This document shows, in pieces, positions 2,280-22,632 of a stretch of DNA of 22,632 bases (position 1 is the first letter of the stretch; the number at the start of each line of letters is the position of its first letter). Under the pieces are notes generated by a model, which did no database searches, was not told the origin of the DNA, and worked only from the letters and a program-made list of their open reading frames with translations. The position numbers and the translations under genes are program-made. Source of the DNA: Chiloscyllium plagiosum (Eukaryota); the NCBI RefSeq assembly GCF_004010195.1, contig NC_057749.1:5659634-5682265 (forward strand), given 5' to 3'.

Positions 2280-2765
2280 AGAGTATTCACTTGTGAGATG
2301 TGGGTGTTGCTGGCTGGCAAGTAATCTTTTGCCCATCCGTAGTTGCCCTTGAGAAGGTGGCAGTGAGCGTCCTTCTTGAACTGCTGCAGTCCACATGCTG
2401 TAGGTACAGGATGTGCTGCAGAAATTCTCCAAAGAGCCTTAGACAGAACCTTCTACTTCTATCTAGAAGGACGGGGGCAGCAGATACATGGGAACATCAC
2501 CCCCTGCAAGTTCTGCTCCAAGCAACACTCCATCCTGACATGGAAATATATCGCTGCTCCTTCACTGTCACTGGGTCAAAAATCCTGGAATTGCTTCCCA
2601 AAGGACATGTTGGGTCGACCTACAGCAGTTCGAGAAGGCAGCTCAAGGGAAGGGCAATAAATGCTGGCCAGCCTGTGACCCCTACATCCCACAAGGGAAT
2701 AGAAAATGAAAGATAGTTCCACAACATCCCTAGGGAAGAAATTCCAGGATTTTGATTCAGTGACA
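2280..2765. mobile_element. CR1-like LINE 3' ends: minus copy (~2280-2410 and ~2720-2765) interrupted by a plus copy (~2430-2710)
   Basis: gtgggtgttgctggctggc...gcccttgagaaggtgg is the reverse complement of agggcaataaatgctggccagcc...catcccaca. The same family occurs at 4015-4700, 13040-14440 and 14940-15210. Confidence 0.65.
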
Positions 2766-2918
2766 GTGATGGCGCAGGCTCAGTGGTTAGCACAGCTGAC
2801 TCACAGCGCCAGGGACCCGGGTTCAATTCCAGCCTTGGGCGACTGTCTGTGTGGTGTTTGCACATTCTCCCCATGTCTGCGTGGGTTTGCTTCAAGTGCT
2901 GTGGTTTCCTCCCACAGT

Positions 2919-3014
2919 TGAAAAATGTGGTGCTGGAAAAACACAACAGGCCAGGCAGCATCCGAGGAGCAGGAGAATCGACGTTTCGGGGATAAGCCCT
3001 TCTTCAGAAATGAG
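2919..3014 (-). mobile_element. Penelope-like short element (family A) with an 8-bp TSD
   Basis: TSD cccacagt at 2911-2918 and 3015-3022. Body gtggtgctggaaaa...gcagcatccgaggagcagg...cgacgtttcgg is shared with many copies. Confidence 0.8.
2980..3007 (-). ncRNA. Minimal hammerhead ribozyme motif (best-preserved core)
   Basis: Minus strand CTGAAGA-A-GGGC-TTAT-CCCC-GAAACGTC: CUGANGA, stem II (three G-C pairs plus one mismatch), GAAA, palindromic ACGT and a GUC cleavage triplet. Confidence 0.65.
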
Positions 3015-3635
3015 CCCACAGTCCAAAGATGTGCAGGTTAGGTGAATTGGCCATGCTAAATTGTCCCATAGTGTTCAGGGATGTGTTAGTGAGGGGTAAA
3101 TGTAGAGTAATAGGGTAGGGGAATGGGTTTGGGTGGGATATCCTCCAGAGGGTCGGTGTGGGCTTGTTGAGCCGAAGGGCCTGTTTCCACACTGTAGGGA
3201 TTCTATTATTCGATAAAAAAATTTTACATTTCCAAGTGAGGTAGTATGAAAGAGATGTTGTGATTTCATCTACTTGTGCCACTGATACACCCTAACGAAG
3301 TACCAACTGTGTAAATGAGTCCATTTCCAAATTTATTAGGGGTCTGTTTCACTGTATTTTTACTGGTAGTGTGAGCCCATCATTCTTTAAGGTGCACTTT
3401 TTGAAATAAAAAATATTCAGCACAGAATCTGGCAATTCTATCCAAAAGGATTATGTTGGTCCATATTATCTCCATGGACCTCCTCCACCTATACTTACTT
3501 TAACCCAGATAGCAATATCTTTCTCTCTCATGCACCTATCTGACTTCCCCTTAAAGGCATTTGTGCTATTTACCTTTATCACTTTTCTGCAATAGTAAGC
3601 TCGTCAATCTTCTAAATTGGTTATTGAATTCATTA

Positions 3636-3673
3636 AGAAAAAGTGAGGACTGCAGATGCAGGAGATTAGAGTC
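3636..3673 (-). mobile_element. 38-bp terminal fragment of family A element with TSD
   Basis: aagtgaggactgcagatgcaggagattagagtc is flanked by tgaattcatta (3625-3635) and tgaatttatta (3674-3684). Confidence 0.6.
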
Positions 3674-3827
3674 TGAATTTATTACAGAATTTATTAGTCC
3701 CACAATTACAATGATGGTCTCTAAAATGGCCCCAGTACAAGTGGTAACATTTTCCCGCTGTATCCCAGTGTCCACATAATTTTGAATTCCTCTATTGGAT
3801 CGCGTTAATTGGTTGTGATTTACTTAC

Positions 3828-3891
3828 TCATTCTTTTTCTTTATTACGAAGGAAACCCGGTTTGCTTTGTCATGTTTCTTTCCTTCAGGTC
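3828..3891 (-). CDS. DUOX: Dual oxidase short exon (64 nt, phase 1 to 2), basic linker with RVSF
   Basis: Acceptor tcacttcag|GACCT, strong donor AATGA|gtaagt. Translates (G)PEGKKHDKANRVSFVIKKKN(E/D). Phase fits the previous exon, and RVSF occurs at the equivalent place in DUOX2. Confidence 0.82.
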
Positions 3892-4014
3892 CTGAAGTGA
3901 TAAATTCACAACAATTAACATCAAATGTAAAAGTACCAAGCTACAAGTTAGTAAAAGTACCATTGATAACATCTTCTCAGTTTTACTTCGACTTGTGGTT
4001 GGGTTAAATTGTTT

Positions 4015-4700
4015 TGTGGGACGTGGATGCCAATGATGAAGCCAATAATTGTTGTCCATCCTTAACTGCTCTTGAGGAGGTGGTGGTTACTTACATCCAC
4101 AATGCTGTCAAAAAGGACTTTCCAGGATTTGGACAAAGCAATACTAATGGAATGACCACATATTTCCAAGTTAGGATGATCTGTGACTTTAAGAGGAACT
4201 CACGGCTAGTAGGGACCATCGCATCTGCTGACTAGGTCCTTCTACATGTTTGAGATTGTGGTATCTATCAAAAGTTTGTGAATTGCCACAGTGCATTGTC
4301 TAGATGGTACATACTGTCATCATTGTGGAGTGGAGTGAGTGAACGTTGAAGGTGGTGGATGGGATGCCTATCAAGTGGATTTCTTTAACCTGGTTGGTGT
4401 CGAGCTTCTTGAGTGATCTTGGAGCTGCACTCATCCAGGCAAAGAGGGAGTATTCTTCACACTCTTAACTTGTGTCTTAGAGATGGTGGTCAGACTTTGG
4501 GAAATCCGTTGCTACAAAATAATAAGCTTCTGACCTCCACACATTGTCACTTTCTTCACTGTCATTCAGCCAATATCCTGTAATTCCCTCCCTAACAGCA
4601 TTGTTGAGTATACCCATGCCACAAGGTCTGCAATGGTTCAAAAAGACGTCTCATCACCAGCCTTTCAAAGGAAATTAGGGTTGGACAATGAATTGTGCCC
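4015..4700. mobile_element. Decayed CR1-like LINE pieces, minus (~4015-4520) then plus (~4545-4700)
   Basis: Similar to the 2280-2765 and 13040-14440 family (tatttccaagttaggatg; aattccctccctaacagcattg; ggttcaaaaag). Confidence 0.55.
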
Positions 4701-5122
4701 TTGGATCTCACAATTTTCTTTTTAAACCTGGCATTATTAGTGAAAAGAAAAATATTAACATTTCTGATGAACAGGTGTGATGAATGAGCATTAACTTGAA
4801 ACAGTAACCATTTGCTCCTTGTTTCATAGATGCTGCCATAAACTAACTACTGTACCTATTTCAAATAAAGACAGAAAGATTTTATCAGGAGGAAAAATTA
4901 GGGAAGGTATTAGCCAACATGGTGAAGGTAATTGAAAGGAAAGGTATTAGTCAGTGATTTGGTGAGTGCAGCAATATATCCAATCCTTACATAAACGAAC
5001 CTGCACATTATATTGCCCCCAAATAATGACCCAGATAATCATGGCTATAAAATACCAATTTGCCTTTACTATTTGGAAACATAGGATTCACCGGTCTTTA
5101 ATACTCTAAAAGGTTTGATGAC

Positions 5123-5298
5123 CTTTCAGAGCAGGCTGAGAAAGCTCCATCTCTTGGTAATGGTCACGGAACAGGCAATGGAAATCCTCCCACATTATCT
5201 CCTCTTTATCTTCAAATCCTGCATCTTTGAACATTGACTCCATCACATTCTCTATCTCTCCCTTTGGCAAGCTGTTGTTTGAGATCTCGATGAAAGAC
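5123..5298 (-). CDS. DUOX: Dual oxidase exon (176 nt, phase 2 to 1), EF-hand-like region
   Basis: Acceptor tattttag|GTCTTTC, donor CTGAAAG|gtcatc (weak). Translates (R)SFIEISNNSLPKGEIENVMESMFKDAGFEDKEEIMWEDFHCLFRDHYQEMELSQPALK(G), matching DUOX SFIEISNN..ESMF..GF.DKEE..WEDFH. Confidence 0.93.
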
Positions 5299-5604
5299 CT
5301 AAAATATTAAAAGGAAAACAGCCCTGCCTTTAAGCAAATGGAACAAAAAATTATGATACTCACATGAGTTTTAACTTTCCACTCAATACAAAGACGTTAC
5401 TAATGTTTCTCATCAAATCAGAAAAGTATCTTTAGAGTAGTACTCTGTTTAATTTAGTTTCATAGCGAGATAATGGCCAATTGCTGTTTGTTTGAAGAAA
5501 ATAAACAAGGAGCAAGAGTAGACTATATGACTCTACACGTCTCTGCTCTAGTATGATGTGACTATTACTGATCTTGTGCCTCAAATCCACTTTCTTGCCT
5601 AATC

Positions 5605-5719
5605 GGGCTTATGTCCGGAACATCAATTCTTCTGCTCCTTGGATGCCGCCTGACCTGCTGTGCTTTTCCAACACCACATTCTTGACTCTGATCTCCTGCA
5701 TCTGTATACCTCACTTTCT
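5605..5719 (+). mobile_element. Family A Penelope-like element truncated inside hammerhead stem II, within a decayed CR1-like tail
   Basis: gggcttatgtccggaacatc...tgacctgctgtgcttttccaacacc...cctcactttctc. Candidate TSD cctaatc at 5598-5604 and 5720-5726. Confidence 0.7.
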
Positions 5720-6349
5720 CCTAATCCCCAACATCCCTGGTTTTCAATGAGATCAAAAGTCTACATCAATAAAGATAATCAGTGATGGAATATCCATAAT
5801 GCTCTAGGGGCAAGAGGTCTAAAGAACAATAAGATACTCCAGGCAGATTTCAATGGCTATCTGTGTCAAGGCTAGCCACATAAAGGTGGTTAGTACAAAT
5901 GATACAGGACGATCTTAAAAAAGGGCATTCCAAATTTTTGGAATGCAGGCCTCCTCTATTGGGAAAGCAATGTAGCTGACTGGCCCAAGTGGAGGCAAAC
6001 ATCAGAATCTGGTTTGGTCTGTGTCATGGAACATCTATGCCAAAGTCACAATACCCACCTCTCCCAGAGGAAGGCCGGATACTGCACAACTGCAGAAGCT
6101 CCTGGGTGAGCATGAGTTGAGGATGAGGGTGAGGGTTAGGGGATCAACATGAGCTGCCAGATCCATGCCAATCTCATGTTGGACCCCTCAGTTATAAGAG
6201 GAACAAGATGATGATGAAATTGTTTGGATATACTCAAATAATATATTTGATTTTATTACCACGCACCGATCTACATGATTTCTGTAACAGCACTTTCAGA
6301 GCTATTGCGAAAATGTCCCCTTTTTTTTATCTGAAACAACCTATTTGTT

Positions 6350-6900
6350 TGGTTACTCTAAACAGGGCACTGAATCGCAGAGGTGCAACAGCAGAGATGC
6401 AGCGCAAAACAAAGCCTTTTGTGTTGTGCCAGCTACCTTCATGAGCAATTTACCTATTGCCACAGCCTTCTTGTTATAGACCGACATGAACTTCACTTTC
6501 AGATAATAACCCAATGCCGTTTCGAATGCCTCAGTTGACCTGTCACTACCACAACCTCAGGCTTCCAGATCCCAACCACCAACTGCATGAAAATATTTCT
6601 GGTTGTGTCTCCAAATATTTCTTTTACTATTCACTTTCAATCTGGTGATTTATCCTTCTTGATCCTTTCGCCAATGGGAAGGGCTTTGCCCAGGTACAAA
6701 ATTTTGAATACCTCTATCAATTTTATTCTCAGCCTTCTTCTCTCCAAGAAAAGCAACAATTGAGGTAACTAATTCCTGGAACCATTCTTGTGAATTCTGC
6801 ATTCTCACTAATGTCTTCAGATTCTTTCTGAAAGTGTACCACCCAGAACTTGACACATCAGAGAAAATCCTCAATCAAACTTTTATAATATCACAACATG
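6350..6900 (-). mobile_element. Highly decayed CR1-like LINE 3' fragment
   Basis: Patches such as ttccagatcccaaccaccaactgcatgaaaatatt and aattttgaatacctctatcaa resemble the reverse complement of CR1 ends elsewhere in the window. Boundaries are approximate. Confidence 0.45.
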
Positions 6901-7283
6901 TACTTTAGTGTTCAATGGTTCTATTGTCGAGTGTTTGATGATGTTATTTCTGGGAACTGATACTTACTAACTCCACTTGATTGCTTAAGCCTATTGATGA
7001 GACTAGAGAGTTAAGTAATGAAAACTACAGGGACAATGTTTCTGGATTGTGGATTGAGACTATGTGTGTTAAAACCCTGAAAGTTCAAAGATATTTCAAA
7101 GTACTATAATAAAACCTGTTTGGATTTAGAACAAGTGCCATCTCTGGAATATTTTGAGCTAAAGCAGACAGTATAAGATATAAGCAAGCCTGTGAATGCA
7201 CAATAGGTACTGTCCAGAGAAACAATTACATGCGCACTGGATAAAGAACAATATTAAATGTGAATAATGTTTATTTCATTTAC

Positions 7284-7377
7284 CTCAGCAGTTGTGAGAA
7301 CTCTTCCTTTGACATGGAACCACTCCCATCGACATCATACATTGCAAACATTAGCTTTGATTTCTCCTCAGGAGTAC
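7284..7377 (-). CDS. DUOX: Dual oxidase exon (94 nt, phase 1 to 2) containing EF-hand 2
   Basis: Acceptor ttgtctag|GTACT, donor CTGAG|gtaaat. Translates (G)TPEEKSKLMFAMYDVDGSGSMSKEEFSQLL(R), with a 12-residue loop DVDGSGSMSKEE. Phases fit both neighbours. Confidence 0.95.
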
Positions 7378-7457
7378 CTAGACAAATCAAATAGTTAAAT
7401 ATTAAATTGTGGAAATGAAAAATTGAATGCTTTCACGACAGGAGACCAAACCTTCAA

Positions 7458-7554
7458 CAACAACAGAAGTTGCTGGAAAAGCTCAGCAGGTCTCACAGCA
7501 TCTGTAGTGAGAAATCAGAGTTAACGTTTCAAGTCCAGTCTCCCTTCCTCCAGT
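7458..7554 (-). mobile_element. Family B Penelope-like short element with a decayed hammerhead and a 14-bp TSD
   Basis: Minus strand CTGGAGGAAGGGAGACTGGACTTGAAACGTTAAC. TSD gaccaaaccttcaa (7444-7457) and gaccgaacctacaa (7555-7568). Confidence 0.7.
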
Positions 7555-8175
7555 GACCGAACCTACAATGCGGGTTTAATCTCCAGGATTGAGGAAGTGT
7601 GGATTGAAACATTTTAACGAGTATTAGTTAAAACTTCTAAGAAAAACAGTAAAATATCACAGACGGGGGTGTGCCTAATCCATTTACTTATTCCAAACTT
7701 GACGTTTTGGTCTTATGTATTAACATTTCTAACCTGCTCTGTAATTTTGTGATATGGCAGAATATTTGCAAGTAACAAAACAGATTTTAGCTTCTGCACA
7801 ACACAGAGTTGGAGCTTCACAGTAACAGTGTCAAACAAAGCAGGAGCTGTCAGTCATTGTTTTGGAGACAGGCTGACCAGCCTGGTATTTCAAAGAACAT
7901 TCCCTCCTTTTTAAACTACAGTGAAAATCAGACTAGGATCTGCAAAGCAGAAACTTATCTTTAAATTTCCAATCAAAGCCACGAAGTTTTCACTTTCATT
8001 GATTGTAGCTGCAAACTTTCCAGGTAAATGATCCAAATCTTCTGCAACATGCACACATTTTCTTTTCACTGTGGGACTGAAAAGCAAGTTGTTTCCATGA
8101 TGAGCACCTCGCTAACTTTAGCTGGTTTAATTAGCCACGAAACTGACTTCCACTGAGTTCTCAAAAGGAATTTGA

Positions 8176-8502
8176 GGGTAACACGGTGGCTCAGTGGTTA
8201 GCACTGCTGCCTCACAGTGCTGGGGACACAGGTTGAATTCCAGCCTCAGGTGACTGTCTGTGTGGAGTTTGCACACTCTCCACGTGTCTGTGCGGGTTTC
8301 CTCCGGGTGCTCCGGTTTCCTCCCACAGTCCAAAGATGTGCAGGTTAAGTGAATCGTGCTAAATTTCCCATCATGTTCAGGGATAAATATAGGGTGGGGA
8401 GGGGGGGTAGGGGGAATGGGTCCGGGTGGGTTACTCTCCAAAGGGTCAGTGTGCACTTGTTGGGCTGAAGCGTCTCTTTCCACTCTGTAGGGATTCAATG
8501 AT
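8176..8502 (+). mobile_element. HE1-like SINE
   Basis: Near full-length consensus with A box, B-box-like ggttgaattcc, core and CR1-like tail. Confidence 0.85.
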
Positions 8503-9372
8503 TACCTCAGTTAGTGCTCTTTTCTCTGAATCATAAGGTTCTGTATTCAAGTCACACACCAGTGCACAAAAATATAGGCTAACTCCAGGGCAGCAGTGAA
8601 GCGGTGCTGTTCTCTTTGGATGAGATGTTCAGCCGATGAGGCATCTGCCTGCTTAGGTAAATGTGAGAGATCCCATGGCACTAATGTACAGAGCAGGGAG
8701 TTCTTCTCAATGTCTGTGCCAACAGTTATCCATCAACAAAAACTACATAAAACAAAATCATGCACTCGCAATCATTGCCCTGTTTGTGGGAGCTTGCTCT
8801 GTGTAAATTCGCTGTTAAGTCTCTTACACATTTGAGAATTCTGAGACAACACTTGATGGAGTTTAGAAGGATGAGGGGAGATCTGATTGAAACTTTCAGA
8901 ATACTGAACTGCCTGAACCGAGTGGATGTTGGGAATACGTTTCCAATTTTAGGACAGACAAGGTCCTGAGGGCACAGCCTTGGAGGAAAGGGAAGACCCT
9001 TTAGAACAGAAATAGGGAGAAACAGCTTCAGCCAGAGAGTGGTGAATCTGTGGAATCCATTGCCACAGAAGGCTGTGGAGGCCCAGTCATTGAGTATATT
9101 TAAAACAGAGATAGATAGATTCTTGATTGCCAAGGGGATCAGGGGTTACAAGGAGAATGAGGGAAAATGAGTTTGAAAAACCTATCAGCCTTGACTGAAT
9201 GGTGGAGCAGACTCGATGGGCCAAATGGCCTAATTTCTGCTCCTATGTCTTATGTTCTTAAGGTCTTATGACAACAGCTATTACACTTCAAAATTACTTC
9301 ACCTGCTGTAAAGTGCTTTGAGATAGCTGGTTGTTTTGAAAGACACTATGTAAATACAAGGCTACTTTCTTT
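8503..9372 (+). mobile_element. Deu-domain SINE (SacSINE1-like), split by a CR1 insertion at ~8850-9270
   Basis: tRNA-like head, then ggatgagatgtt...gagatcccatggcacta...gagcagggagttct and tgtttgtgggagcttgct. The 3' part acacttcaaaattacttc...tgtaaagtgctttgag resumes at ~9271. Confidence 0.6.
8850..9270 (+). mobile_element. CR1 LINE 3' end (second subfamily)
   Basis: EFRRMRGDLIETFRILN..FSQRVVNLWN.LPQKAVEA..FKTEIDRFL, then 3' UTR and a tcttatg-type tail. Confidence 0.85.
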
Positions 9373-10103
9373 ATGTTAACTTTAACAGGCAGAGCTGAGT
9401 GAGGAACATCAATGTTTTGGTCATTTCTTTATACATATCAGAGTAGTATGACACCTGATTAATCAAAGTAAATGTAAAAAAAAAGTTCAACTAACAAACA
9501 AGAAGTTATAGAGTCCTGAACTGCCTGAACCGAGTGGATGTTGGGAATACGTTTCCAATTTTAGGACAGACAAGGTCCTGAAGACCCTTTAGAACAGAAA
9601 TAGGGAGAAACAGCTTCAGCCAGAGAGTGGTGAATCTGTGGAATTCATTTCCACAGAATGCTGTGGAGGCCCAGTCATTGAGTATATTTAAAACAGAGAT
9701 AGATAGATTCTTGATTGCCAAGGGGATCAGGGGTTACAAGGAGAATGAGGGAAAATGAGGTTGAAAAACCTATCAGCCTTGACTGAATGGTGGAGCAGAC
9801 TCAATGGGCCAAATGGCCTAATTTCTGCTCCTATGTCTTATGTTCTTAAGGTCTTATGACAACAGCTATTACACTTTAAAATTACTTCACCTGCTGTAAA
9901 GTGCTTTGAGATAGCTGGTTGTTTTGAAAGACACTATGTAAATACAAGGCGACTTTCTTTATGTTAACTCTAACAGGCAGAGCTGAGTGAGGAACATCAA
10001 TGCTTTGGTCATTTCTTTATACATATCAGAGTAGTATGACACCTGATTAATCAAAGTAAATGTAAAAAAAAAGTTCAACTAACAAACAAGAAGTTATAGA
10101 GTC
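8904..10103 (+). repeat. Direct tandem duplication: 8904-9515 (612 bp) and 9516-10103 (588 bp)
   Basis: By eye the copies differ by about 9 substitutions and a 24-bp deletion in copy 2. Junction agttatagagtc|ctgaactgcc. Confidence 0.95.
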
Positions 10104-10372
10104 ATAGAAATCTACAGGATAGAAAAAAAAGACCCTTCAGCCTATCGCATTCACACTAGTCAAAAACAACCACCTAACTATTCAAATCCCATTTTTCTGC
10201 ACCTGGCCCATGGCCTTGTACACCCTGGCATCACAAATGCACATCTAAACACTTCTCAGTATTGAGGATTTCTGCCTTTACCACCCTTACAGATCCAGAT
10301 TCCCACCACCCTCTGGGTAAAAAGGATTTTTCTCACATCTGCTCTAAACCTTCTGCCCCTTACCTTAAACCT
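10095..10372 (-). mobile_element. CR1-like LINE 3' fragment
   Basis: atagagtcatagaaatctacagga...gacccttcagcc tail, then cccaccaccctctgggtaaaaaggatt (reverse of the FFTQRVV region). Confidence 0.65.
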
Positions 10373-10598
10373 CCATATAATCTCAACAAGATTTCTGTTT
10401 TGAGAGAAGTTTCGACAATGCAGGAACAAATGTGTTCAGGATACACATGAATGTGCAGATGCCATAGCACAGGACATTTTCTTCATTGTCCAGGCTTTGT
10501 GACTGGCACCTCTATCGGTCAATCGTCAATGCCTTCAAGACAAAGCAAACGTCCAAATGACATTTCAAATAGGTGTCATGTCCTCAGCTCTGGATTAC

Positions 10599-10824
10599 CT
10601 TTCATCAAGATGACAAAGATGTCCAGAAACTCCCGGAAAGATAGGTAGCCATTTCCATCCTTGTCAGCTAAAGCAAACATCTGCTCCACAAACATAGAGT
10701 TCTCCTTTAGTCCCAATGCATCTGCAAACTCTGTTGTAGTCAGTTCACACTTCAGGGACTCTTTAGCTTTCTTTGAACTTTCAATATCAAAGTCACCAGC
10801 ATCTGAACCATCAATCTCCAGAAC
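10599..10824 (-). CDS. DUOX: Dual oxidase exon (226 nt, phase 0 to 1) containing EF-hand 1
   Basis: Acceptor atttag|GTTCTG, donor ATGAAAG|gtaatc. Translates [75 protein letters not shown](G). [17 protein letters not shown] is the hallmark DUOX EF-hand. Confidence 0.96.
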
Positions 10825-11119
10825 CTAAATGTGGCAACAAGATAGTATAGAATAATCCATTTTCTACTCTTCATTGAATAAAAGTAGATAAAACATGACC
10901 CTGATTACTACTGCTGACAATATTATCAGATAAACATTTGCATAGCCTTTTTCTTTTTTTAACTGAATTTGTTAAATTATTTACAATTAAAATGTTAATG
11001 TATACATTGAAGTAATAAGCACAACACCATAAAAATCCTTAACAATAATTTACATGCCTCAATGCTCTTGATTCAACTAGTTCTGCAAATTGGTTTAGTG
11101 ATCAGTCTTCGAAACTTCC

Positions 11120-11260
11120 CATATATGTGGGTGAATACAATATGGGGCAGTGTACATGGTGTGCGTGTGGTGTGCAACTTGTACTTGTGTCGTGTGTGCA
11201 TGTGTGGGGTGTATATAGTTGGTGAAGGTGCAGTGTGTGATGCATGTGTCTGGTGTATGA
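11120..11260. repeat. GT-rich low-complexity tract (decayed microsatellite)
   Basis: gtgtgcgtgtggtgtgcaac...gtgtcgtgtgtgcatgtgtgggg. Confidence 0.5.
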
Positions 11261-11262
11261 GC

Positions 11263-11700
11263 TAGTGCTGCTGAATAGGCACCTTATCAAACGATACATG
11301 ATACTGAGCCATAAAAGAAGGAATTAGGTCAGATGACCAAAAATTATTTTTTGGCTTTAAGGAGTGTCTTGATGAAGGAAAGTGAAGCGGAGGGACAAAG
11401 AAATTTAGGAAGAGTATTCCAAATCTTAGGCCTGAAGGTATGCATACCAATAGTAGCCTGAATATAACTGAGAATACACAAGTGGCCAGAATTAGAGAAG
11501 CACTGATACCTCAGAGGGTTGTGGAGCTAAAGGGAATGCAAGAGATGAATGTTAAGATGTTGCTTGACTGGGAACCAATGTAGATCTGTGAGTAAAAGAG
11601 GGAGGGCAAAAACTTGAGTTAAGATTTAAACTGCAGTTTTGGAAGATTTCACGTTTACAGAGTGGAGAATGTGAGAGATCAGCCAGGAGTGAGCTGGAAC
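11263..11700 (-). mobile_element. Decayed L2-like LINE fragment
   Basis: Minus strand CTACATTGGTTCCC (LHWFP, similar to the L2 LHWLP motif) near 11570-11583. A related remnant lies at ~17450-18020. Confidence 0.45.
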
Positions 11701-11984
11701 AACGTACCAATTTTGTTAAACTACCAATAATGGGTTAAACCTGGCATCACCCTGTTACAATGAAGTTTTACTCACTTCAAAACAAAAATAAATTCCTGAC
11801 TTTGTTAATGAAGACAAACACCTTGAACGAGAATAATCACAGCTTTCCATGACTTAAAATTCCTTATGATATCTGGAGAAACTGTACATCTATTTCATTG
11901 TAGTACCAAGTGGAAACAAATAGAACACTACGCATGACCAAGAGGATTATTTAAACGGTGCAATTCATGTAACTGGAACGGTAC

Positions 11985-12170
11985 CTCTGCAAATACACGA
12001 CGGAAGAAAGTATCTAAGATTTTAATCCGCTGCTGCTTTGTCACTGCTTCTTTCAAAAGCGTCCGTTCTTTCACTTCATGAATCAGTGGAGTTACGCGAT
12101 GCGTTTGGAGATGTGCTGTCAATTCTTCCACAAAATTAGCACGATCTTCTTCCCCAGTAAACATCAATAC
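11985..12170 (-). CDS. DUOX: Dual oxidase internal exon (186 nt, phase 0 to 0), cytosolic linker before the EF-hands
   Basis: Acceptor ttgcacacag|GTATTG, donor GCAGAG|gtaccg. Translates VLMFTGEEDRANFVEELTAHLQTHRVTPLIHEVKERTLLKEAVTKQQRIKILDTFFRRVFAE, matching the vertebrate DUOX segment ending AVTKQQR..IL..FFR.LFA. Confidence 0.93.
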
Positions 12171-12514
12171 CTGTGTGCAAGATGTAGCATTCAGATTAGA
12201 TTCATGAGATGCCACTTAAAGACCATGCATATTCCTGTGACGATGACGGCAACCAAGATGAAACCTACATCTGTCAATTAAGATACAAATAGTAAATAAA
12301 AGATGGGGAGGGTAATACATGTCACAATAAAAGCATTGATGGAACTTCATTGGAAAATGTGCATGCAATGTTGAGACATAAACAGACGTTTCTTTCATGA
12401 CCGTCCAGACTTAATATGTCATAAACGGTTGAAATGATTGTATTGTTGTTAAGTTCCTAGAGTAGAAATCAAAATTGTGCACTGTGATATCGAAACCATG
12501 ATTACAGGAATGTT

Positions 12515-12758
12515 AAATTGAAACCAAAAGAATTGCGGATGCTGTCAAACAGAAGCAAAAACAGAAATTGCTGGGAAAGCTCAGCAGGTCTGGCAGCATC
12601 TGTGGAGTGAAATCAGGGTTAACGTTTTGGATCGGGTGACCCTTCCTCAGAACTTCCTCACTTCGGAGGAAGGGTCACTTAACCTGGAACGTTAACTGAT
12701 TTCTCTCACAGATGCTGCCAGACGTGCTGAGCTTTTCCAGCAAATCCTGTTTTTGTAT
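12515..12758. mobile_element. Family B palindromic Penelope-like element with two head-to-head decayed hammerheads and a 14-bp TSD
   Basis: Inverted arms ~12556-12653 and ~12662-12755. TSD attacaggaatgtt (12501-12514) and attacaagaatgtt (12759-12772). Left arm (minus) GTT-CTGAGGA-A-GGGTC-ACCC-GATCC-AAAACGTT-AAC. Confidence 0.8.
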
Positions 12759-13039
12759 ATTACAAGAATGTTGCTCAAGGTTGTAAACTTCTGAAAATAA
12801 AAGTTTAACACATGCAATAATATAAACCTTACAGAATCACTGGAAGATTTCAGATGACAGTATTCGTATAATGACACATTGAGTTGTTTGAATTGCAGTT
12901 AATGGTGAAAATTTCTGCCACCAAATAGCAATGCAGTGTACAACAGACAGTGCTAAGAGATCTCATTGCCAACAGATCAGATCTAAGCTTTGCTGTCCTA
13001 CCACATCTGGCCATTAATGGTGATAGACAATTAAATAAT

Positions 13040-14440: not shown

Positions 14441-14469
14441 TGACCATGACAAAGTTAAATCAAAACATT

Positions 14470-14640
14470 ATAAAATTTGCTAAAATACTTAGGGGTATAG
14501 ATAAGGTTAATGGTAGTTGTCTTTTCCCTAGGATGGGGGATTCAAGACTAGGGGACACATCTTTAAGGTGAGGGGAGAGAAATTTTAAAAAGACATGCAG
14601 GACTTTTTTCGACATAGAGGGTGACTCTATGACTATGACT
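14470..14640 (+). mobile_element. CR1 3' fragment with internal deletion
   Basis: KILRGIDKVN..TRGHIFKVRGE..FF.HRG joined directly to the gactctatgactatgact tail. Confidence 0.7.
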
Positions 14641-14695
14641 AAGTTATCAGTTTGCTACCTTAGTTAAGTGCCTCTCTCAATCTTCACAATAAGTG

Positions 14696-14824
14696 GCAAA
14701 AGTGAGGACTGCAGATGCTGGAAACCAGAGTTTAGATCAGAGTGGTGCTGGAAAAGTACAGCAGGTCAGGCAGCACCTGAGGAGCAGGAAAATTGATGTT
14801 TCGGGCAAAAGCCCTTCATCAGCC
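14696..14824 (-). mobile_element. Family A Penelope-like element with a 14-bp TSD
   Basis: TSD cttcacaataagtg (14682-14695) and cttctcaataagtg (14825-14838). Confidence 0.8.
14795..14822 (-). ncRNA. Minimal hammerhead ribozyme motif
   Basis: CTGATGA-A-GGGC-TTTT-GCCC-GAAACATC: intact core and perfect 4-bp stem II. ACGT has become ACAT (CpG decay). Confidence 0.62.
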
Positions 14825-14939
14825 CTTCTCAATAAGTGTCCTGCTTCACGACTCCAAACCAGCTCCAGCGGCCTTACTGGTTTAGTCTTTTTGAACTCTA
14901 AATCCAGAATGAAATTAAAACTCACAACCGTGCTAACAT

Positions 14940-15210
14940 AACCTTGCAAATCTGTGACATCTACTACTTAAAAGGAACCAGGGCAGCACAGGCACATCAG
15001 CAGCTGCACATCCCTCTCCTTATCGGACACGGCCCTGAACTGGAAGTATATCACCAGTCCTCCATCAAAACCATGGAAGTTGTGACTTAACAACACGGTA
15101 GGGTTGCTCAGCTCAAGGAAGTGTCTCAACAACATCTCCCCGAGAGCAAATCAGAATGGCCCATAAATGCTTGTTTTGCAGAAACACTTTAATCCCATTA
15201 ATGAACATTT
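14940..15210 (+). mobile_element. Decayed CR1-like LINE 3' end
   Basis: ctgaactggaagtatatcacc...tcaaaaccatggaa...ataaatgctt, the same family as 2430-2710. Confidence 0.5.
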
Positions 15211-15825
15211 TCATTCTGGAAAAAAGGACTTGAAAGAAACTGATCCTTCAAACTGTTAATCTCAATGTCAGCGCATCATTTTCTGAATTGGCTAATTAAT
15301 TAAAATCAGAAAATTAATTGTCAGCTTTGGCATTAGCTACATGACTAACAACCACAGAACTGGGCCAGAACCAGTTAGGCAACTCCTTTGTAAATTGATG
15401 AATCTGTGCTTTATATTGACACATCAGTTTATAAGGTGGGGCAGCTTTGACATTTTGCAAGTTGAATAGCAGAATAATATTTCATTTTCGAGAGCACTAA
15501 CCTGACAGTTCAGTGTAAAAACAAAACCATATGATTATATAGCACACCACATTAAAAAAGCAAATAAACTGTTATTGACTATTTTATGAAGCCCAACAAA
15601 ACATTCAGATAGACCAGTGTCATATTTCACAGGAAGGTCAGAATTGTTCCTAATGAAACAATAGGCAGATCCTGCTGTCAGTATTAATGAAGAACTTCAT
15701 TGTACTCTGTCCTGGACCATCTGGCAAACATTTGGAGCTTTTGTGGGATTTTAAACCATATATTCAAGTAAATGCTTTTCTCCCTCAGCTTGCCACCCAT
15801 TTTCCTGAAGAAAGGGTTCCTTTCT

Positions 15826-16290
15826 GAAGTAAAGATAAAATAGCTTGAGTCCTTATTGGACCAAAGAGCTGCTCGGCCATTAGCGAGAGATCAGGATTAG
15901 AGTGGTGCTGGAAATGCACAGCAGGACACGTAGCATCCGAGGAGCAGGAAAATCGACGTTTCAGGCAGGAGCTCTTCATCAGGAATGTTTCCTCATGAAG
16001 GGCTCCTGCCCGAAACGTCAATTTTCCTGCTCCTCGGATGCTATCTGACCTGCTGTGCACTTGCAGCACCACTCTAACCTTGACTCTGCATCTCCTGCAT
16101 CTGCAGTCCTCACTTTCACATCAGCGAGAGGTGATTAGCGATGTTTTAACCTGAGGGTCACCATGCTCAGGTGAGGTTGAGAAGGAATGTCCTTCACAAT
16201 AACCTCAGCCAGTGCAGGAATTGAACCCTTGCTGTTGGCGTTACTCTGCAGTGCCGGTCATCCAGCCAAGTGAACTAAGTGAACCCTTGC
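15826..16290 (-). mobile_element. tRNA-derived SINE (non-HE1), interrupted by a palindromic Penelope-like insert
   Basis: Minus strand tagttcacttggctgg (A-box-like) and gggttcaattcc (B box). The body continues across the 15890-16118 insert. Confidence 0.55.
15890..16118. mobile_element. Family A palindromic element with two head-to-head hammerhead motifs and a 12-bp TSD
   Basis: Minus 15955-15982 CTGATGAAGAGCTCCTGCCTGAAACGTC; plus 15992-16019 CTCATGAAGGGCTCCTGCCCGAAACGTC. TSD cattagcgagag (15878-15889) and catcagcgagag (16119-16130). Confidence 0.85.
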
Positions 16291-16363
16291 CCTTTCTGAA
16301 GTCCAGAACCATAGGCCCTGGGAATCATTTGATACTATGGCCAATCATGGATAGTCTTAACAA

Positions 16364-16581
16364 CCAAGAGAAGGTGAGGACTGCAGATGCTGGAGATCAG
16401 ATTCAAAGAGTGTGGTGCTGGGAAAGCGCAGCAGCTCAGGCATCATCCGAAGAGCAGGAGAATTGAGGTTTCAAGCATAAGCTCTTCATCAGGATTCCTG
16501 ATGAAGAGCTTATGCTCAAAAGATCGATTTTCCTGGTCCTCCGATGCTGCCTGACTGGCTGTATTTTTCCAGCACTCTTTC
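16364..16581. mobile_element. Family A palindromic element
   Basis: Perfect 21-bp inverted repeat agcataagctcttcatcagga-t-tcctgatgaagagcttatgct (16474-16516) at the centre of longer imperfect arms. Candidate TSD agtcttaacaa (16353-16363) and agtcttgacaa (16582-16592). Confidence 0.82.
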
Positions 16582-16671
16582 AGTCTTGACAATCTGGTAA
16601 TTGGCTATTCAACATGGAAATTGAGACCCATTTTGGCTTCATCTAGCTTTGACCTTGCCCACATTTTTAGC

Positions 16672-16890
16672 AAGACTTTCTAGCTGTGAATCTTTGGAAC
16701 TGCTCACCCCAGAGGACTGTGGACATTTTATCACCAAGTACATGAAGTAAGTAGAATTTGGTGTCTCAGGGAATCAGGGGCGGGGGAGGAGTGAAGGGGG
16801 CATGAAAATATAATTGAAGTTAGAGATGAGACATGGTAGAGCAGGCTCAAAGGGCCAAATGGTCTACCCCTGTTCAGATTTCTTGTCTTT
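16672..16890 (+). mobile_element. Decayed CR1 3' end
   Basis: gtgaatctttggaac...cagaggactgtgga and tail ggtagagcaggctcaaagggccaaatggtcta, similar to 9040-9250. Confidence 0.55.
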
Positions 16891-17584
16891 TATCCCCTTC
16901 TTTTCCTTTCTTTTTCTTATTTTATATCCAGAAATGCTTTTTTGCACAACTCGATGTTCTTTTCTCCCCAACACCAAATCACCCATGTTACTTTTCACAT
17001 GGTATCCATCCGTATTTCTGATTAATTATCAATTTACATGAAGAACCTCTCAAAGGCAATACAATGACACCAAAGGTGAGTGAAAGGTGGGGAAAGAGGG
17101 AAAGCATTAAGTCAAGATGGAGTTGGAAGGGGTTTCCAGGCACTCCATCCCTGCAGCGCCAACCTCTCTCTGAAGAGATTGAGAGTATTGGTGGACACTG
17201 CATACTCTCGTTCCAAGGACTTCCACAAGGAGAACAAGGGGAAAGCAATTTCTCATCATCTTAGGAGAATGATATAATTGATTTTCCTCTTCCTGACCAC
17301 AAAACCAACCATAGTTGCCCTTGTTAGAATTCCCATATATGGAGTGAAAGCAGAGTTTAATGGGTAGCAATCTGGGTATGGGACCAAGACATTTAGTACA
17401 ATTCATTTGAGACTCGTCGAGGTCAAGCTTAAGCCACAAATTACACTTGTACAGTGCCCTTAAACAGAAGAAACATCCAAAGACACTGCACAGGAGACCA
17501 ATCAGGAAATATTGAATCATACAATTGGGATGATTGTACACTTTTCAGGAGCACCTTAAACACGAGATGGGTAAAGAGATAGAG

Positions 17585-17772
17585 TAATAGTCATAGAGAT
17601 GTACAGCATGAAAGAGACTCTTCAGTCCAACTCGTCCATACTGACCAGATATTCCAACCTAATCTAGTCCCATTTGCCAGCACTTGGTTCGCATCCCTCC
17701 AAATCCTCCTATTCGTATACCCATCCAGATGCCTTTTAATTGTTGCAATTGTACGAGTCTCCACCACTTCCG
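17585..17772 (-). mobile_element. CR1 (HER1-like) 3' end inserted in an older L2-like remnant
   Basis: Reverse complement of ~1730-1912 (tagtcatagagatgtacagcatg...ctaatctagtcccatttgccagcac). Confidence 0.85.
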
Positions 17773-18034
17773 TTGTAGAGGTTTAAGGAAGGAATTCCAG
17801 TACTCTGGATTGAAATTTTTTTAAAAATCAAAGCTGCACACAATGACAGGATTCAAAGAAGACAGAGTTTTCAGAGGGTTGAAGATCTGCAGATAGTTAC
17901 AGACATAGGGTGCATTGATACCATCGAATGATTTGAACGCAAGGATGAGCAATGTAAATTTGAATCATTGTTAGATCAGGAAGCAATGTGAGTCAGTGAG
18001 CAAATCAAATCTGGAGACTTCCTGGTTTTTAAAT

Positions 18035-19202
18035 GTTGGGCGCACATAAGTCCATTCAGTCCAACTTGTCCATGCCAACCAGATTTCCCCAAACTAAACA
18101 AGTCCTATTTATCTGCATTTTATCCATATCCCTGTCTGATGAAGGTCTCTTGTCCGAAACATCGACTTTCCCGCTTCTCAGTTGCTGCCTGACCCACTGT
18201 CCTTTTTCAGTACTGCACTTTTCGATTCTGACTCTCCAGCATCTGCAGTCCCCACCTCCTCCATATCCCTCTAAGCCTTTACCATTCATGTACCTGTCTA
18301 AATATCTTTAAAATGTTGTAACTGTATTTGTATCTATCAGTTCCTCTGGCAGTTCACTCCACATATATAACCACCCCCTCTGTGTGAAGAAGTTGGCCTT
18401 CAGGTCCCTTTTAAATCTTTCTCCTCTCACCCTCACCTTCTCCCCTCACCTCCTCTCACCCTCTAGTTTTGATCTTCACAAACCTAGGCAAAATATCTTT
18501 GCTATTCACCTTATCTATGCCCCTCATGATTTTCTAAACTTCTATAAGCTCATCCCTCTTACGCTCATGTGAAAACCCTCCGAGCCTATCCAGCCTCTCT
18601 CTATAATTCAGACCCTTCGGTCTTGGTTACATTCCCCTAAATCTTTTCTGCAACCTCTCCATTTTAATAATAAATCCTTCTTATCATAAGGGGGATCAGA
18701 ACTGTACACAGCATCCCAAAAGTGGCGTCACCAATGTTCTGTACAACCTCAACATGACATCCCAACTCGTGTACTCAATGGACTGAGCAACGAAGGTAAG
18801 TGTGCCAAACGCCTTCTTTACCACCCTGACTTGTGTGAACCAATTTTCAAAGAACTATGTGCTTCAGCCCCAGGTCTCACTGTTCATCAGTGCTCCCTAG
18901 GGCCCTACTATTAACTGAGAAAGTCCTGCCCTTGTTCATTTTACCAAATGCAACACCTCGCATTTATCCAAATAAAACTCCATCTGCCTCTCCTCAGCCC
19001 ATTTGGCCTAATTGATCAAGAGCCCTTTGTAATCTTAGATAAGCTTCTTCACTGTTCACTTTACTACCAATTTTGGCACCATCTGCAAACTTACTAATCA
19101 TGCTGCCTAAGTTCTCATCCAAATTGTTTACATAAATGACAAACAACAGTGGACCCAGCATTGATCAATGCGGAACACTGTTGGTCACAAGCCTCCAGTC
19201 TG
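18035..19202 (-). mobile_element. 5'-truncated, decayed CR1 LINE (RT C-terminal half to 3' UTR)
   Basis: Minus 19200-19066 reads DWRLVTNSVPH*SMLGPLLFVIYVNNLDENLGSMISKFADGAKIG, the broken PQGSVLGP and FADD RT motifs. Confidence 0.88.
18134..18259 (+). mobile_element. Family A Penelope-like element with hammerhead motif (18136-18163) and a perfect 11-bp TSD, nested in CR1
   Basis: CTGATGA-A-GGTC-TCTT-GTCC-GAAACATC. TSD tccatatccct at 18123-18133 and 18260-18270. Confidence 0.82.
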
Positions 19203-19414
19203 TTTATGCTGTTGCTGCTCTCAAACATATTGCAATTCCTGACAAATATAAAACCGTTAGCCTCGGTCTGACATCGTAGGCTTGTGGTGCATAAGGGGAG
19301 AGGGCTCTGTCCGTTCAACTCTGGGATCAAATCAATGTCTCTTTTCATCTCATTGCTGGCTCTAATGTTTTCAAGTGAAAGTAGCTCACACAATTCTCAA
19401 ACCAATTTAGCAAA

Positions 19415-20356
19415 GAGGTGGAACAAATGGAGAGTGTCAAGCTCCCGGGAGTGGTCATCCACAACAAGCTTTCTTGGACTCTTCATGTGGACGCACTGGT
19501 TACAAAGGCCCAAAACGTCTCTTCTTCCTCAGGCAGCTAAGGAAATTGGGCATGACACAAATACCCTTGCCAACTCTTATAGGTGCGCCATCGAGAACAT
19601 TCTGTCTGGATGTATCAATATCTGGTATGGCAACTGTACCATTCAAGATCGGAGACGGTTACAGAGATTGGTGAACTCAGCCTGGACAATCACAAAAGCC
19701 AACCTCCCATCTATAGAATCCATCTACCAGGCCCACTGTCAAGGAAAGGCCGCCAGCATTCTCAAAGATCTATCCCACCCTGACAATGTTTTTCTACAAC
19801 CTCTACCATCGGGGAGAAGGTACAGAATCCTGAACACATGCACCAGCCGGTTTCAAAACAGTTCCTACCCTACTGTTGTTAGAATACTGAATGGACTCCT
19901 ATACCTGTGTTTTTTGTTTTTGTTGCTGTTACCTATTATTTATTTCTCTATGCTACATAACGGGCGGCATGGTGGCTCAGTGATTAGCACTGCTGTCTCA
20001 CAGCACCAGGGTCCCAAGTTCGATTCCAGCCTTGAGCAACTGTCTGTGTGGAGTTTGCACATCTCCCCGTGTCTGCGTGGGTTTCCTCCGGGTGCTCCGG
20101 TTTCCTCCCACAATCCAAAAATGTGCAGATTAGGTGAATTGGCCATGCTAAATTGCCCGTAGTGTTAAGTGAAGGGGTAAATGTAGGTCTGGTGGGTTAC
20201 GCTTCAGCGGGTCAGTGTGGACTTGTTGGGCTGAAGGGCCTGTTTCCACACTGTCAGTAATCTAATAACTCTGTGATCTGCCTGTATTGCTCGCAAGACA
20301 AAGTCTTTCACTGTGCCTCGATATGCATGACAATAAATTCAATTCAATTCAATTCA
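19415..20356 (+). mobile_element. Rex1/Babar-type LINE 3' end (frameshifted), interrupted by an HE1 SINE
   Basis: KRLFFLRQLRKLGM / YRCAIENILSGCINIWYGNC..LQRLV..LPSGRRYR..SRFQNSSYP..RILN, then aataaa and an (aattc)n tail at 20336-20355. Confidence 0.8.
19962..20264 (+). mobile_element. HE1-like SINE
   Basis: Full head gggcggcatggtggctcagtga, B box gttcgattcc. Possible short TSD ataac (19957-19961 and 20265-20269). Confidence 0.85.
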
Positions 20357-20604
20357 GTTAAATTCAGAGGGTTTGACCACATACCTTCAATAATTGACAG
20401 AATGCCAATCAGCTTGAAAAATAGTAAATATTCGAAACAATGTCATGGTAAAGAAAGCAACAATTGTTCTTATGATTCAGACAGCCAGAAGGATTGAATT
20501 GGAGCCAATATTTACTCAGCTTTACATTTCACTATAGACTTAAATATTACAAGTATATACTTCTTGACACAACCACAAAATTGACAATTGTTTAAACAAC
20601 TCGG

Positions 20605-22483
20605 TTTCAAGAACCCCTCCCCAGCATATGCCTGTTAAATGTCCAAGCCAAACAAGGTGAACGAGCTGAAAGATAGACTCACCGACCAAAGGAAATTGAG
20701 AGACTGCTGTGTGCTCTGTTTTACGGAGACATGGCTCACTCCTGCTACACTTGACTGTGCCTTACAACCTGAGGGTTTCTCAATCCACCAGATGGACAGC
20801 ACAGCATCCTCGGGCAACGCAAAGGGAGGCAGGGTCTGTCTCCTGATCAACACAACTCTTGTTGCTTGGACATGATGACTGGCAAGATACTGCTTCCTGG
20901 GCCTAGAATATCTAATGGTGAAGTGCCATCCCAACTACCTTCCACAGCAGTTTGCTTCTGCTATCCTGGCAGCAGTTTATATCCCACCCCATATAAAAGT
21001 AAAGAGCATACTTGATGAAATATACACTGCCACAAATAGCCTTATGACGGAATACCCCAAGGCCTTGTTCATCACAGCTAGTGACTTCAAGAGGGATAAC
21101 CTCAAGAGTGTGCGACCAAGATATCATCAACATGGCTCCTGTCCCACCAATCACCCTGGACCATTGCTGAACAACCAGCAATGACACCTACCATTCTATT
21201 CCACTCCCGCATTTTGGTAACTCAGTCAATAAGATTGTGCTCCTTCTCCCAGCTCACAGGCAGAAACTGAAGTGTGAGGATCTGGTACAGAAAGGTGTAC
21301 CCCGCTGGTCTGAGGTAATGAATGAGCTCCGAAGTGATTGCTTGGAATCGATGGACTGATCCATCATCAACAACTCAATGGTCAACCTAAATGAGTATGC
21401 CATTACCATCACAGACTTCATCAGTAAGAGTGTAGAGGACTGTGGTGCTAAAGAAGTTAATCTGAGTGTACCCCAACCAGAAACCATGAATGAATCAGGA
21501 GATCCACTCCCTACTGAAGTCCAGGTCTGAGGCGGTCAAGTCAGGTGACCCTGACCTATACAGGAAATCTAGATACAATCTTCACAAAGTCATCAGGGAC
21601 ACCGAGAGACAATACCAAACTAAACTAGAGTCCCAGACTAACCACACAAACATAGATCGACTGTGACAAGGCTAATATGACATAATGGACTACAAAGCTA
21701 AGCTGAATAGAATCGCTGACAACAGTGTATCCCTCCCTGATGGGCTCAATGCATTCTATGCTAGTTTTGATCAGAAGGTCAGTGAAATGGTGTCACCTGC
21801 CCCTGACAGCCTCGGGTGTACCTATACCCACACTCACTGCCACAGGGGTCAGATCAGCGTTCTGGAGGGTGAACCCACGGAAAGCAACAGGCCCGGATGT
21901 AGCCCTCGGCTGTGCACTCAGATCCTGTGCAGACCAGCCGGTGAGAGTATTTTCAGAGATCTTTAACCTCCCCGTACTACAATGTGAGGTTCTCACCTGC
22001 TTCAAGATGACCACCATCATCCCAATGTCAAAGAAAAATCAGGCAATGTGCCTTAATGCCTACCATCTGGTGGCTCTGACCTCCATCATTATGAAGTGCT
22101 TCGAGAAGTTAGTCTTGGCACATATCAACTCCAGCCTCCCAGACTGCTTTGATCCTCTACAATTCACTGATTGTCACAATAGGTCCACAGCAGACGCCAT
22201 CTCCCTGGCCCTACACTCATCCCTGGAACATCTGGATAACACAGACATCTGCATCAGAGTCCTAGTTATTGACTTTGGTTCCCTTCCAACAACATCATTC
22301 CAACAAAATCCACCTCCAAACTCCAAGATCTATGACTCTGCTCCTCCCTCTGCAACTGAATCCTTGACTTCCTGACCCTCAGACCGCAATCAGTAAGGAA
22401 AGGCAACAACATCTCCTCCGTAATCCTCAACACTGGTATCTGCAAGGCTGCATACTCAGCCCTTTACTATACTCCTTATACAT
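20605..22483 (+). mobile_element. Decayed Rex1/Babar-type LINE ORF (AP endonuclease plus N-terminal RT), many stops and frameshifts
   Basis: CVLCFTETWL, GGRVCLLIN and AVYIPP (APE); KATGPD, IIPMSKK, VALTSIIMKCFEKLV, DPLQF and RSTADAI (RT). Cut at ~22484 by a Penelope-like element. Confidence 0.85.
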
Positions 22484-22632
22484 TCATTCTGGATTAGTGG
22501 TGCTGGAAGAGCACAGCAGTTCAGGCAGCATCCAAGGAGCAGCGAAATCGACGTTTTGGGCAAAAGCCCTTCATCAGGAATAAAGGCAGTGAGCCTGAAG
22601 CGTGGAGAGATAAGCTAGAGGAGGGTGGGGGT
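22484..22632 (-). mobile_element. End of a longer Penelope-like element (family A terminal repeat plus internal sequence), running off the window
   Basis: Minus 22550-22577 CTGATGAAGGGCTTTTGCCCAAAACGTC (GAAA changed to AAAA). Unlike the short copies, it appears to continue into purine-rich internal sequence (gaataaaggcagtgagcctg...). Confidence 0.65.

Follow-up and report, generated by a model that had tools for sequence, protein, structure and literature searches.

Hammerhead-bearing repeats at a DUOX locus of a cartilaginous-fish-like genome: probable 3'-terminal fragments of Penelope-like retrotransposons

What are the short hammerhead-like motifs that recur in and near the introns of a DUOX gene on contig NC_057749.1 (positions 5,659,634 to 5,682,265)? 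We refer to the whole of this stretch of 22,632 nt as the window. A sequence-only reading of it had sorted the motifs into two families, A and B, which were described as short mobile elements built around minimal hammerhead ribozymes and as non-autonomous derivatives of Penelope. Our analysis leads to a partly different answer. The pieces are very probably the 3'-terminal parts of endonuclease-positive Penelope-like elements (PLEs), retrotransposons that carry a minimal hammerhead ribozyme (min-HHR), which were 5'-truncated in a large shark-like genome. All genome-wide counts given below refer to the 3.56-Gb assembly that contains the window and are lower bounds. The studies PMC4209133, PMC8557442 and PMC7229834, as well as the preprint of Li et al. 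(2026), are cited from those of their parts that were available to us.

Abundance, architecture and decay of the motifs

The repeated hammerhead-like motifs are genuine and exceed what is expected by chance. When up to 3 mismatches are allowed, the family A pattern has 6 matches in the window, versus none in 100 dinucleotide-preserving shuffles, and the family B pattern has one, versus none in shuffles. A strict gapped pattern matches twice where 0.01 matches are expected. Genome-wide, the exact family A core is found at least 21,180 times and the exact family B core at least 402 times, and the reversed controls gave no match for either. The 12 sites listed by the sequence-only reading are all present, with the positions and strands it had assigned to them. 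We delimited whole copies with profiles built on 30 family A and 14 family B loci of the genome (the latter hold 15 motifs, since one locus has two). This search revealed about 14 fragments in the 22.6 kb of the window, which fits the earlier estimate of roughly one copy per 2 kb. The flanks of other family A loci have a similar density: their 54.6 kb gave 19 hits, or one copy in about 2.9 kb, although this sample is biased and includes two pairs of overlapping loci. The profiles of each family also match the copies of the other, which indicates that the homology of the tail is common to both.

The layout of the motif is compact. It starts with a helix I of 4 positions, followed by the CUGANGA box, an unpaired A, a helix II of 4-5 bp closed by G10.1-C11.1, the GAAA box, a palindromic ACGU without a helix III loop, and GUC or GUU. 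Downstream of the hammerhead motif there is a tail of either about 90 or about 127 nt. The unpaired A after the box, the G...C pair that closes stem II and the ACGU are present in the consensus forms of both families. In metazoan PLEs, an extra base, the G10.1-C11.1 pair and a palindromic 15.2-16.2 are named as the emergent features of min-HHRs (PMC4209133). The predicted structure is thus that of the minimal type I hammerhead of PLEs. More precisely, the motifs share with the min-HHRs in the pseudo-long terminal repeats (pLTRs) of PLEs (Cervera and De la Pena 2014, PMC4209133) the CUGANGA and GAAA boxes, the lack of helix III, the palindromic 15.2-16.2, the unpaired base between A9 and 10.1, the G10.1-C11.1 pair and the short helix I. 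They also share their genomic organization, with thousands of mostly solitary copies per genome, consensus families with covariation, and close pairs on opposite strands. In contrast to the Schistosoma families of the same study, in which helix II has 7-8 bp, it has 4-5 bp here. The copy number is also above the approximately 4,000-9,000 of coelacanth and Xenopus (PMC4209133).

Helix I was absent from our search patterns, and its pairing is therefore an independent check of the structure. Among the 30 family A loci, its four positions are C-G (22 loci), U-A (28), U.U (29) and A-U (28). Among the 15 family B motifs, they are U-A (11), U-A (11), G-C (11) and A-U (9). The first pair has changed on both sides between the families, from C-G in family A to U-A in family B, and the third is U.U in the former and G-C in the latter. 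The earlier claim that the families differ in their stems yet keep pairing is borne out by the covariation of helices I and II between families, but it needs one correction, since the U.U consensus leaves only 3 of the 4 positions of helix I paired in family A. The loop of stem II varies among the window copies as had been described. The GAGC/GCTC variant proposed to be compensatory is present at 16506-16517, and its compensatory nature holds genome-wide: GAGC/GCTC is found 339 times, GAGC/GCCC 613 times, GGGC/GCTC 547 times and GGGC/GCCC 21,180 times, whereas independence predicts about 16 double changes. Most of these double changes have a TTAT loop, so they represent one propagated subfamily and not 339 independent events. 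The covariation that the sequence-only reading had expected in both stems is thus found, in the first pair of helix I and in the double change of stem II, and the genome-wide counts provide a clean natural example of it. At another locus (L040, G000:C2), we observed a single motif, antisense to a match to the GIY-YIG endonuclease domain, with the stem AGGU/ACCU and an AUAU palindrome that replaces ACGU. This motif may represent a third family of hammerheads, in which 15.2-16.2 would covary.

The copies of the window are degraded. None of the 11 complete motifs is identical to its family consensus, in agreement with the earlier statement that most copies are now mutated. In 9 of them we found a CpG transition at C11.1-G12 or at C15.2-G16.2, which are the two CpGs of the core. 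Identity to the family consensus ranges from 76 to 92%, except for the copy A8, which reaches 97%. The window copies are thus old, and what inactivated them was mainly the loss, through transitions, of the two core CpGs. Methylation-driven decay of CpGs is then the main cause of the mutated cores, and the main killer of this ribozyme. The copies are probably inert passengers in and near the DUOX introns.

Link to Penelope-like elements and insertion signature

To which element do these hammerheads belong? The 30 family A loci extend upstream by 0 to 359 nt. One locus (L030) aligns continuously, from 600 nt upstream of the box to position +90, with at least 14 of the 30 loci that were retrieved by a GIY-YIG search of the genome, and the best alignments, with L042 and L056, reach 84-86%. 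The GIY-YIG match of L042 is followed, 412 nt further downstream and on the same strand, by the hammerhead. The open reading frame (ORF) just upstream matches the Pfam GIY-YIG domain (3e-6 and 7.5e-6), and the domain is directly preceded by a CX4CX2C linker, a type of endonuclease linker ascribed to Neptune PLEs (PMC8557442). Further upstream, L056 resembles a reverse transcriptase (RT), with protein-atlas RVT_1 clusters at 0.94 and a weak Pfam RVT_1 match of only 0.13. Hence, family A is physically part of a PLE, in which an RT-like region is followed by a GIY-YIG endonuclease. It forms a continuous 5'-truncation series, the longest members of which extend into the GIY-YIG ORF, and the description as short mobile elements built around hammerheads is not supported as worded. 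The idea of ribozyme-bearing Penelope derivatives was right in that these are min-HHRs of PLEs in two related families, while the term non-autonomous, as worded, found no support. We also considered a longer element on the downstream side, as two loci (L006 and L019) share about 700 nt there. This candidate was rejected, as it has LINE-like (long interspersed nuclear element) ORFs and no PLE body.

The way in which the copies are inserted is also that of PLEs. Insertions of these elements are characterized by a high frequency of 5' truncation, by an adjacent inverted 5'-truncated copy, and by a tail of 30-40 bp that is often present at one end only (PMC8557442). All three features are present here. 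On the 3' side, the sampled family A loci end at +90 to +97 (13 of 30), +126 to +128 (9), +133 to +150 (5) or elsewhere (3). The distribution is bimodal, with two main classes about 33 nt apart that match the optional PLE tail. Inverted copies form head-to-head foldbacks, of which three lie in the range covered by the sequence-only reading and one more outside it (1016-1256). In each of the three, a long arm of 137-143 nt faces a short one of 86-99 nt; the two arms are 79-88% complementary and separated by 1-3 nt. The foldbacks are flanked by target duplications of 8, 11 and 14 bp, which indicates that each foldback results from a single insertion event. Tight head-to-head pairs, with 0-12 nt between the boxes, are found at 1,521 loci genome-wide and at none in the reversed control.

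One of the closest known systems is PAc, an element of the Poseidon clade of PLEs from Anolis carolinensis (Frangieh et al. 2024, PMC11167929). The staggered cleavage and the extension of both target strands are carried out by its protein, and the optional tail is delimited by two adjacent internal sites from which reverse transcription begins. Our elements resemble PAc in the probable use of such start sites and in the position of the hammerhead, approximately 110-150 nt upstream of the insertion end, and the processing of both target strands fits the long and short arms of foldbacks made in one event. By analogy with PAc, the PLE protein would make a staggered cut of both target strands, and reverse transcription would begin at one of two internal sites of the RNA. 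Two such sites would explain both the two 3' end classes and the long and short foldback arms. The cDNAs that reach only the 5' edge of the hammerhead would give rise to the abundant units of 95-135 nt. The agreement of end classes and arms with the internal-initiation model, which was derived from one lizard element, suggests that the model may hold across vertebrate PLEs. There are also differences. The ORF of PAc starts inside the hammerhead, whereas in young family A copies the frame that starts at the ATG within the box stops after 17 codons. The endonuclease linker is of the Neptune type and not of the Poseidon type as in PAc. Finally, PAc has been characterized biochemically, while the element described here is known from its sequence alone.

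The hammerhead itself would work in no RNA other than that of active elements, either as a dimer formed through the ACGU palindrome or with the assistance of a protein, and its cut would follow GUC or GUU. In published assays in vitro, min-HHRs show weak cleavage (PMC4209133), and the PAc hammerhead requires the protein for cleavage and is dispensable for insertion in vitro (PMC11167929).

Truncated products, separate lineages and known systems

Dead-on-arrival insertion products seem a better description of the short units than a separate non-autonomous family, given the 5'-truncation series, the inverted arms with target duplications and the two 3' end classes. Several observations weigh against the assignment of the pieces to min-HHR-bearing PLEs, or against parts of it. 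Only 4 of the 30 GIY-YIG loci have an intact sense motif 141-412 nt downstream under the strict pattern, and with so few motifs in the strict scan the link between family A and PLEs is carried mainly by the DNA alignment. None of the 15 family B motifs is linked to an ORF, and the comparison of their upstream regions with the GIY-YIG loci gave only short repeat hits. A full-length element with the order pLTR-ORF-pLTR was not seen in the fetched loci, whose long candidate stretches read N. The covariance-model search that the sequence-only reading had proposed failed to recover the motifs, as Rfam gave no match in the window at gathering scores and no hammerhead family up to an E-value of 10. 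This miss is expected if the Rfam models require helix III. The minimum-energy folds of a young family A hammerhead, both as a monomer and as a dimer, are alternative pairings and not the active fold. In RNA reads, we found no pile-up of starts or ends at the predicted cut among 445 raw reads of one run, a single-cell polyA library that is unsuited to the cleavage question. These reads come from both strands and 98% of them continue into unlike flanks; a second run had no reads on the units. Lastly, the 5' end is sharp, at most 8 nt from the box in 8 of the 30 family A loci and at most 6 nt from it in all 15 family B motifs, which is not what random truncation predicts.

The sharp 5' boundary would also fit a different origin, in line with the sequence-only reading, in which the units of 95-135 nt are a non-autonomous lineage, similar to short interspersed nuclear elements (SINEs) or to retrozymes, with its own master copies that start at helix I and are mobilised in trans by PLE proteins. 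The absence of an ORF link in family B points in the same direction, as does the accumulation of contig loose ends at the box and 4 nt upstream of it. Among the first 50 listed of the 1,521 tight foldbacks, the arms end mostly at ATTC or GAAT. Moreover, the vertebrate non-LTR retrozymes have been argued to derive from PLE pLTRs (Li et al. 2026). However, upstream lengths in family A cover every intermediate step as far as the ORF, and the short and long copies of this family differ in the majority base at 2 of 90 positions, and only weakly (10 short versus 20 long loci, a small sample compared without gaps). The short copies have no evident promoter, and the inverted pairs are single insertions with target duplications, as in ordinary PLE insertions (PMC8557442). 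The arrangement of the units argues in the same sense. Animal non-LTR retrozymes (PMC7229834; Li et al. 2026) are like them in being short, non-coding type I hammerhead units related to PLE pLTRs and present in lower vertebrates. Unlike retrozymes, which form head-to-tail arrays and circular RNAs, the units of the window occur only as solo and head-to-head copies, with no direct tandem, and their hammerhead lacks helix III. The sole retrozyme-like head-to-tail arrangement that we observed lies elsewhere in the genome (L077, G000:C4:54039500-54040500), where two family B units in direct orientation are 177 nt apart and each follows a short inverted arm. Overall, we regard a separate lineage as unlikely, and as less unlikely when family B is considered by itself.

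A motif conserved for a purpose other than catalysis, which for instance binds a protein or helps the PLE RNA to fold and does not self-cleave in vivo, would account for the poor cleavage of min-HHRs in vitro (PMC4209133). For PAc, insertion in vitro is normal with a mutated hammerhead, and RNA-seq yielded no reads that terminate at the cut site (PMC11167929). PLE clades that lack hammerheads still proliferate (PMC8557442), and our own single-cell polyA reads show no pile-ups. Nevertheless, all positions of the catalytic core are kept in two families whose stems differ and in which helices I and II covary, and the protein-assisted cleavage of PAc is abolished by core mutations and partly rescued by the C3G/G8C double mutant (PMC11167929). 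A non-catalytic role thus seems a little less credible still than an independent lineage. Far behind both comes the idea that the foldbacks only look like hammerheads and are in fact hairpin or microRNA genes or miniature inverted-repeat DNA transposons. The complementarity of the arms, their close spacing and some sub-threshold microRNA-like Rfam scores (e.g., 50 bits for mir-789, with a gathering score of 100) go in this direction. Against it, the arms are unequal (approximately 86-99 nt versus 137-143 nt), the target duplications vary between 8 and 14 bp, and solo and ORF-linked copies have the same sequence. We find it very unlikely.

If the units are truncated PLE products, as we favour, why is their 5' boundary so sharp? 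A tentative answer, which we would not rate as probable, is that it corresponds to the true 5' end of the PLE RNA rather than to a random point of truncation. Helix I begins exactly at this boundary in solo copies, in each arm of the three window foldbacks, and in most of the first 50 listed foldbacks of the genome. Initiator-like words (YYANWYY) occur there in both families, a post hoc reading that counts as weak evidence. If this were so, the units of 95-135 nt would be run-off cDNAs begun at the 5'-proximal internal RT start site. The hammerhead would lie at the extreme 5' end of the transcript, and by cleaving itself there it would release a capped leader of about 32 nt. The PLE hammerhead, long unexplained, would then have a job, which is to switch the RNA from messenger to template.

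PLE hammerheads of this kind have been known since 2014 in other animals. The host here is cartilaginous-fish-like and is not among the hosts named in the parts of PMC4209133 available to us. Our literature search found no dedicated paper on Penelope, sharks and the hammerhead ribozyme, and the review that it returned uses the word shark only as an analogy of shape. The 2026 preprint includes one cartilaginous fish among the genomes with PLEs and retrozymes, and the present families may already be listed in its supplements or in Dfam/Repbase. With these results, the known range of PLE min-HHRs extends to a cartilaginous-fish-like genome in which their copy numbers are very high. The family also seems to be common to related species, since for the segment L025:1392-1545 (runs X1 and X10) a run whose label names a different organism (A) has contigs with the hammerhead and tail, at a likeness of at least 93% and a very high summed depth.

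Copies in the window and their surroundings

The copies and the DUOX exons of the window are listed in the table below.

Table 1. Hammerhead-bearing copies and DUOX exons in the window (HHR, hammerhead ribozyme).
Feature	Position	Strand	Remarks
A1, family A	2927-3021	-	HHR 2980-3007; 86% identity to family consensus; short 3' end class
Partial copy, family A	5605-5723	+	76.5% identity; between two DUOX exons
B1, family B	7445-7553	-	HHR 7523-7553; short 3' end class; DUOX intron between two EF-hand exons
B2/B3, family B head-to-head foldback	12513-12655 and 12661-12759	- and +	Long arm with tail (-) and short arm (+); 14-bp target duplication, 1 mismatch
A2, family A	14685-14822	-	Starts exactly at CUGAUGA box; long 3' end
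A3/A4, family A foldback	15889-15986 and 15988-16128	- and +	TCCT-loop subfamily; short arm (-) and long arm (+); 8-bp target duplication AGCGAGAG
A5/A6, family A foldback	16358-16494 and 16496-16581	- and +	TTAT-loop, GAGC/GCTC subfamily; long arm (-) and short arm (+); 11-bp target duplication, 1 mismatch
A7, family A	18131-18250	+	Starts at box; 79.5% identity
A8, family A	22468-22630	-	Profile E 4e-54; short 3' end class (+92); extends to window edge
Extra decayed copy, family B	1016-1122 and 1164-1256	- and +	Arm with HHR relic (-) and tail-only arm (+); outside the range of the sequence-only reading
DUOX exons	11931-12215, 10579-10824	-	Solved DUOX1 structures, E 2e-29 and 2e-6; residues ~697-839
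DUOX EF-hand exon	7283-7432	-	Pfam EF-hand domains
Probable DUOX exon	5109-5306	-	Translation read by eye only; no Pfam match

The copies differ in how their hammerheads were damaged. A1 is the only one in the window with every conserved core base, and 3 of the 4 pairs of its stem II are kept. The partial copy at 5605-5723 is 5'-truncated inside stem II and therefore lacks the CUGANGA box. In B1 this box is broken (it reads CTGGAGGA) and the CpG preceding G12 is mutated. The hammerheads of B2 and B3 both appear to be dead, the former through a change of G12 to A, the latter through a change of U4 to G together with GGAA. A2 has lost the helix III palindrome by a CpG transition from ACGT to ACAT. 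A7 shows the same change to ACAT, along with one mismatch in stem II. The A3/A4 inverted repeat has arms of 95 nt that are 88% complementary; A3 (15955-15982, minus strand) kept its core and has a weakened stem II, and A4 has a change of G5 to C. The compensated stem II is present in A6, but its G12 is mutated. The youngest copy of the window is A8, whose identity of 97% is to the consensus of the exact-core copies of the genome. At least 53 nt are preserved on the upstream side of its box, and its G12 was changed to A through a CpG transition. The foldbacks at 15934-16040 and 16470-16520 are long, near-perfect hairpins and, if transcribed, a possible source of hairpin small RNAs.

The claim that the copies are spread through DUOX introns holds for part of the window. 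DUOX exons bracket the region 5109-12215, and the copies in that span are therefore intronic, but a Pfam scan of minus-strand ORFs (130 frames, 42 aa or longer) revealed no DUOX exon above 12215. The copies are most likely inert with respect to DUOX and simply fill its introns.

Other repeats are found in the same stretch. A tRNA-derived SINE has five copies, at 36-310, 623-891 (inverted), 2765-3210, 8176-8503 and 19962-20269. A1 is located within the third of these, which is split by the family A insertion at approximately 2929/3015. The presumed likeness of this SINE to those of elasmobranchs is the reason why we describe the genome as shark-like. A local direct duplication (8891-9291 and 9503-9879), with a period of 588-612 nt and an identity of 94-98%, contains a LINE-like ORF fragment. 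Finally, the plus strand at 20639-22375 has frameshifted ORFs that resemble a fragment of a LINE endonuclease/RT, with no Pfam match at 0.01, and A8 adjoins its 3' side.

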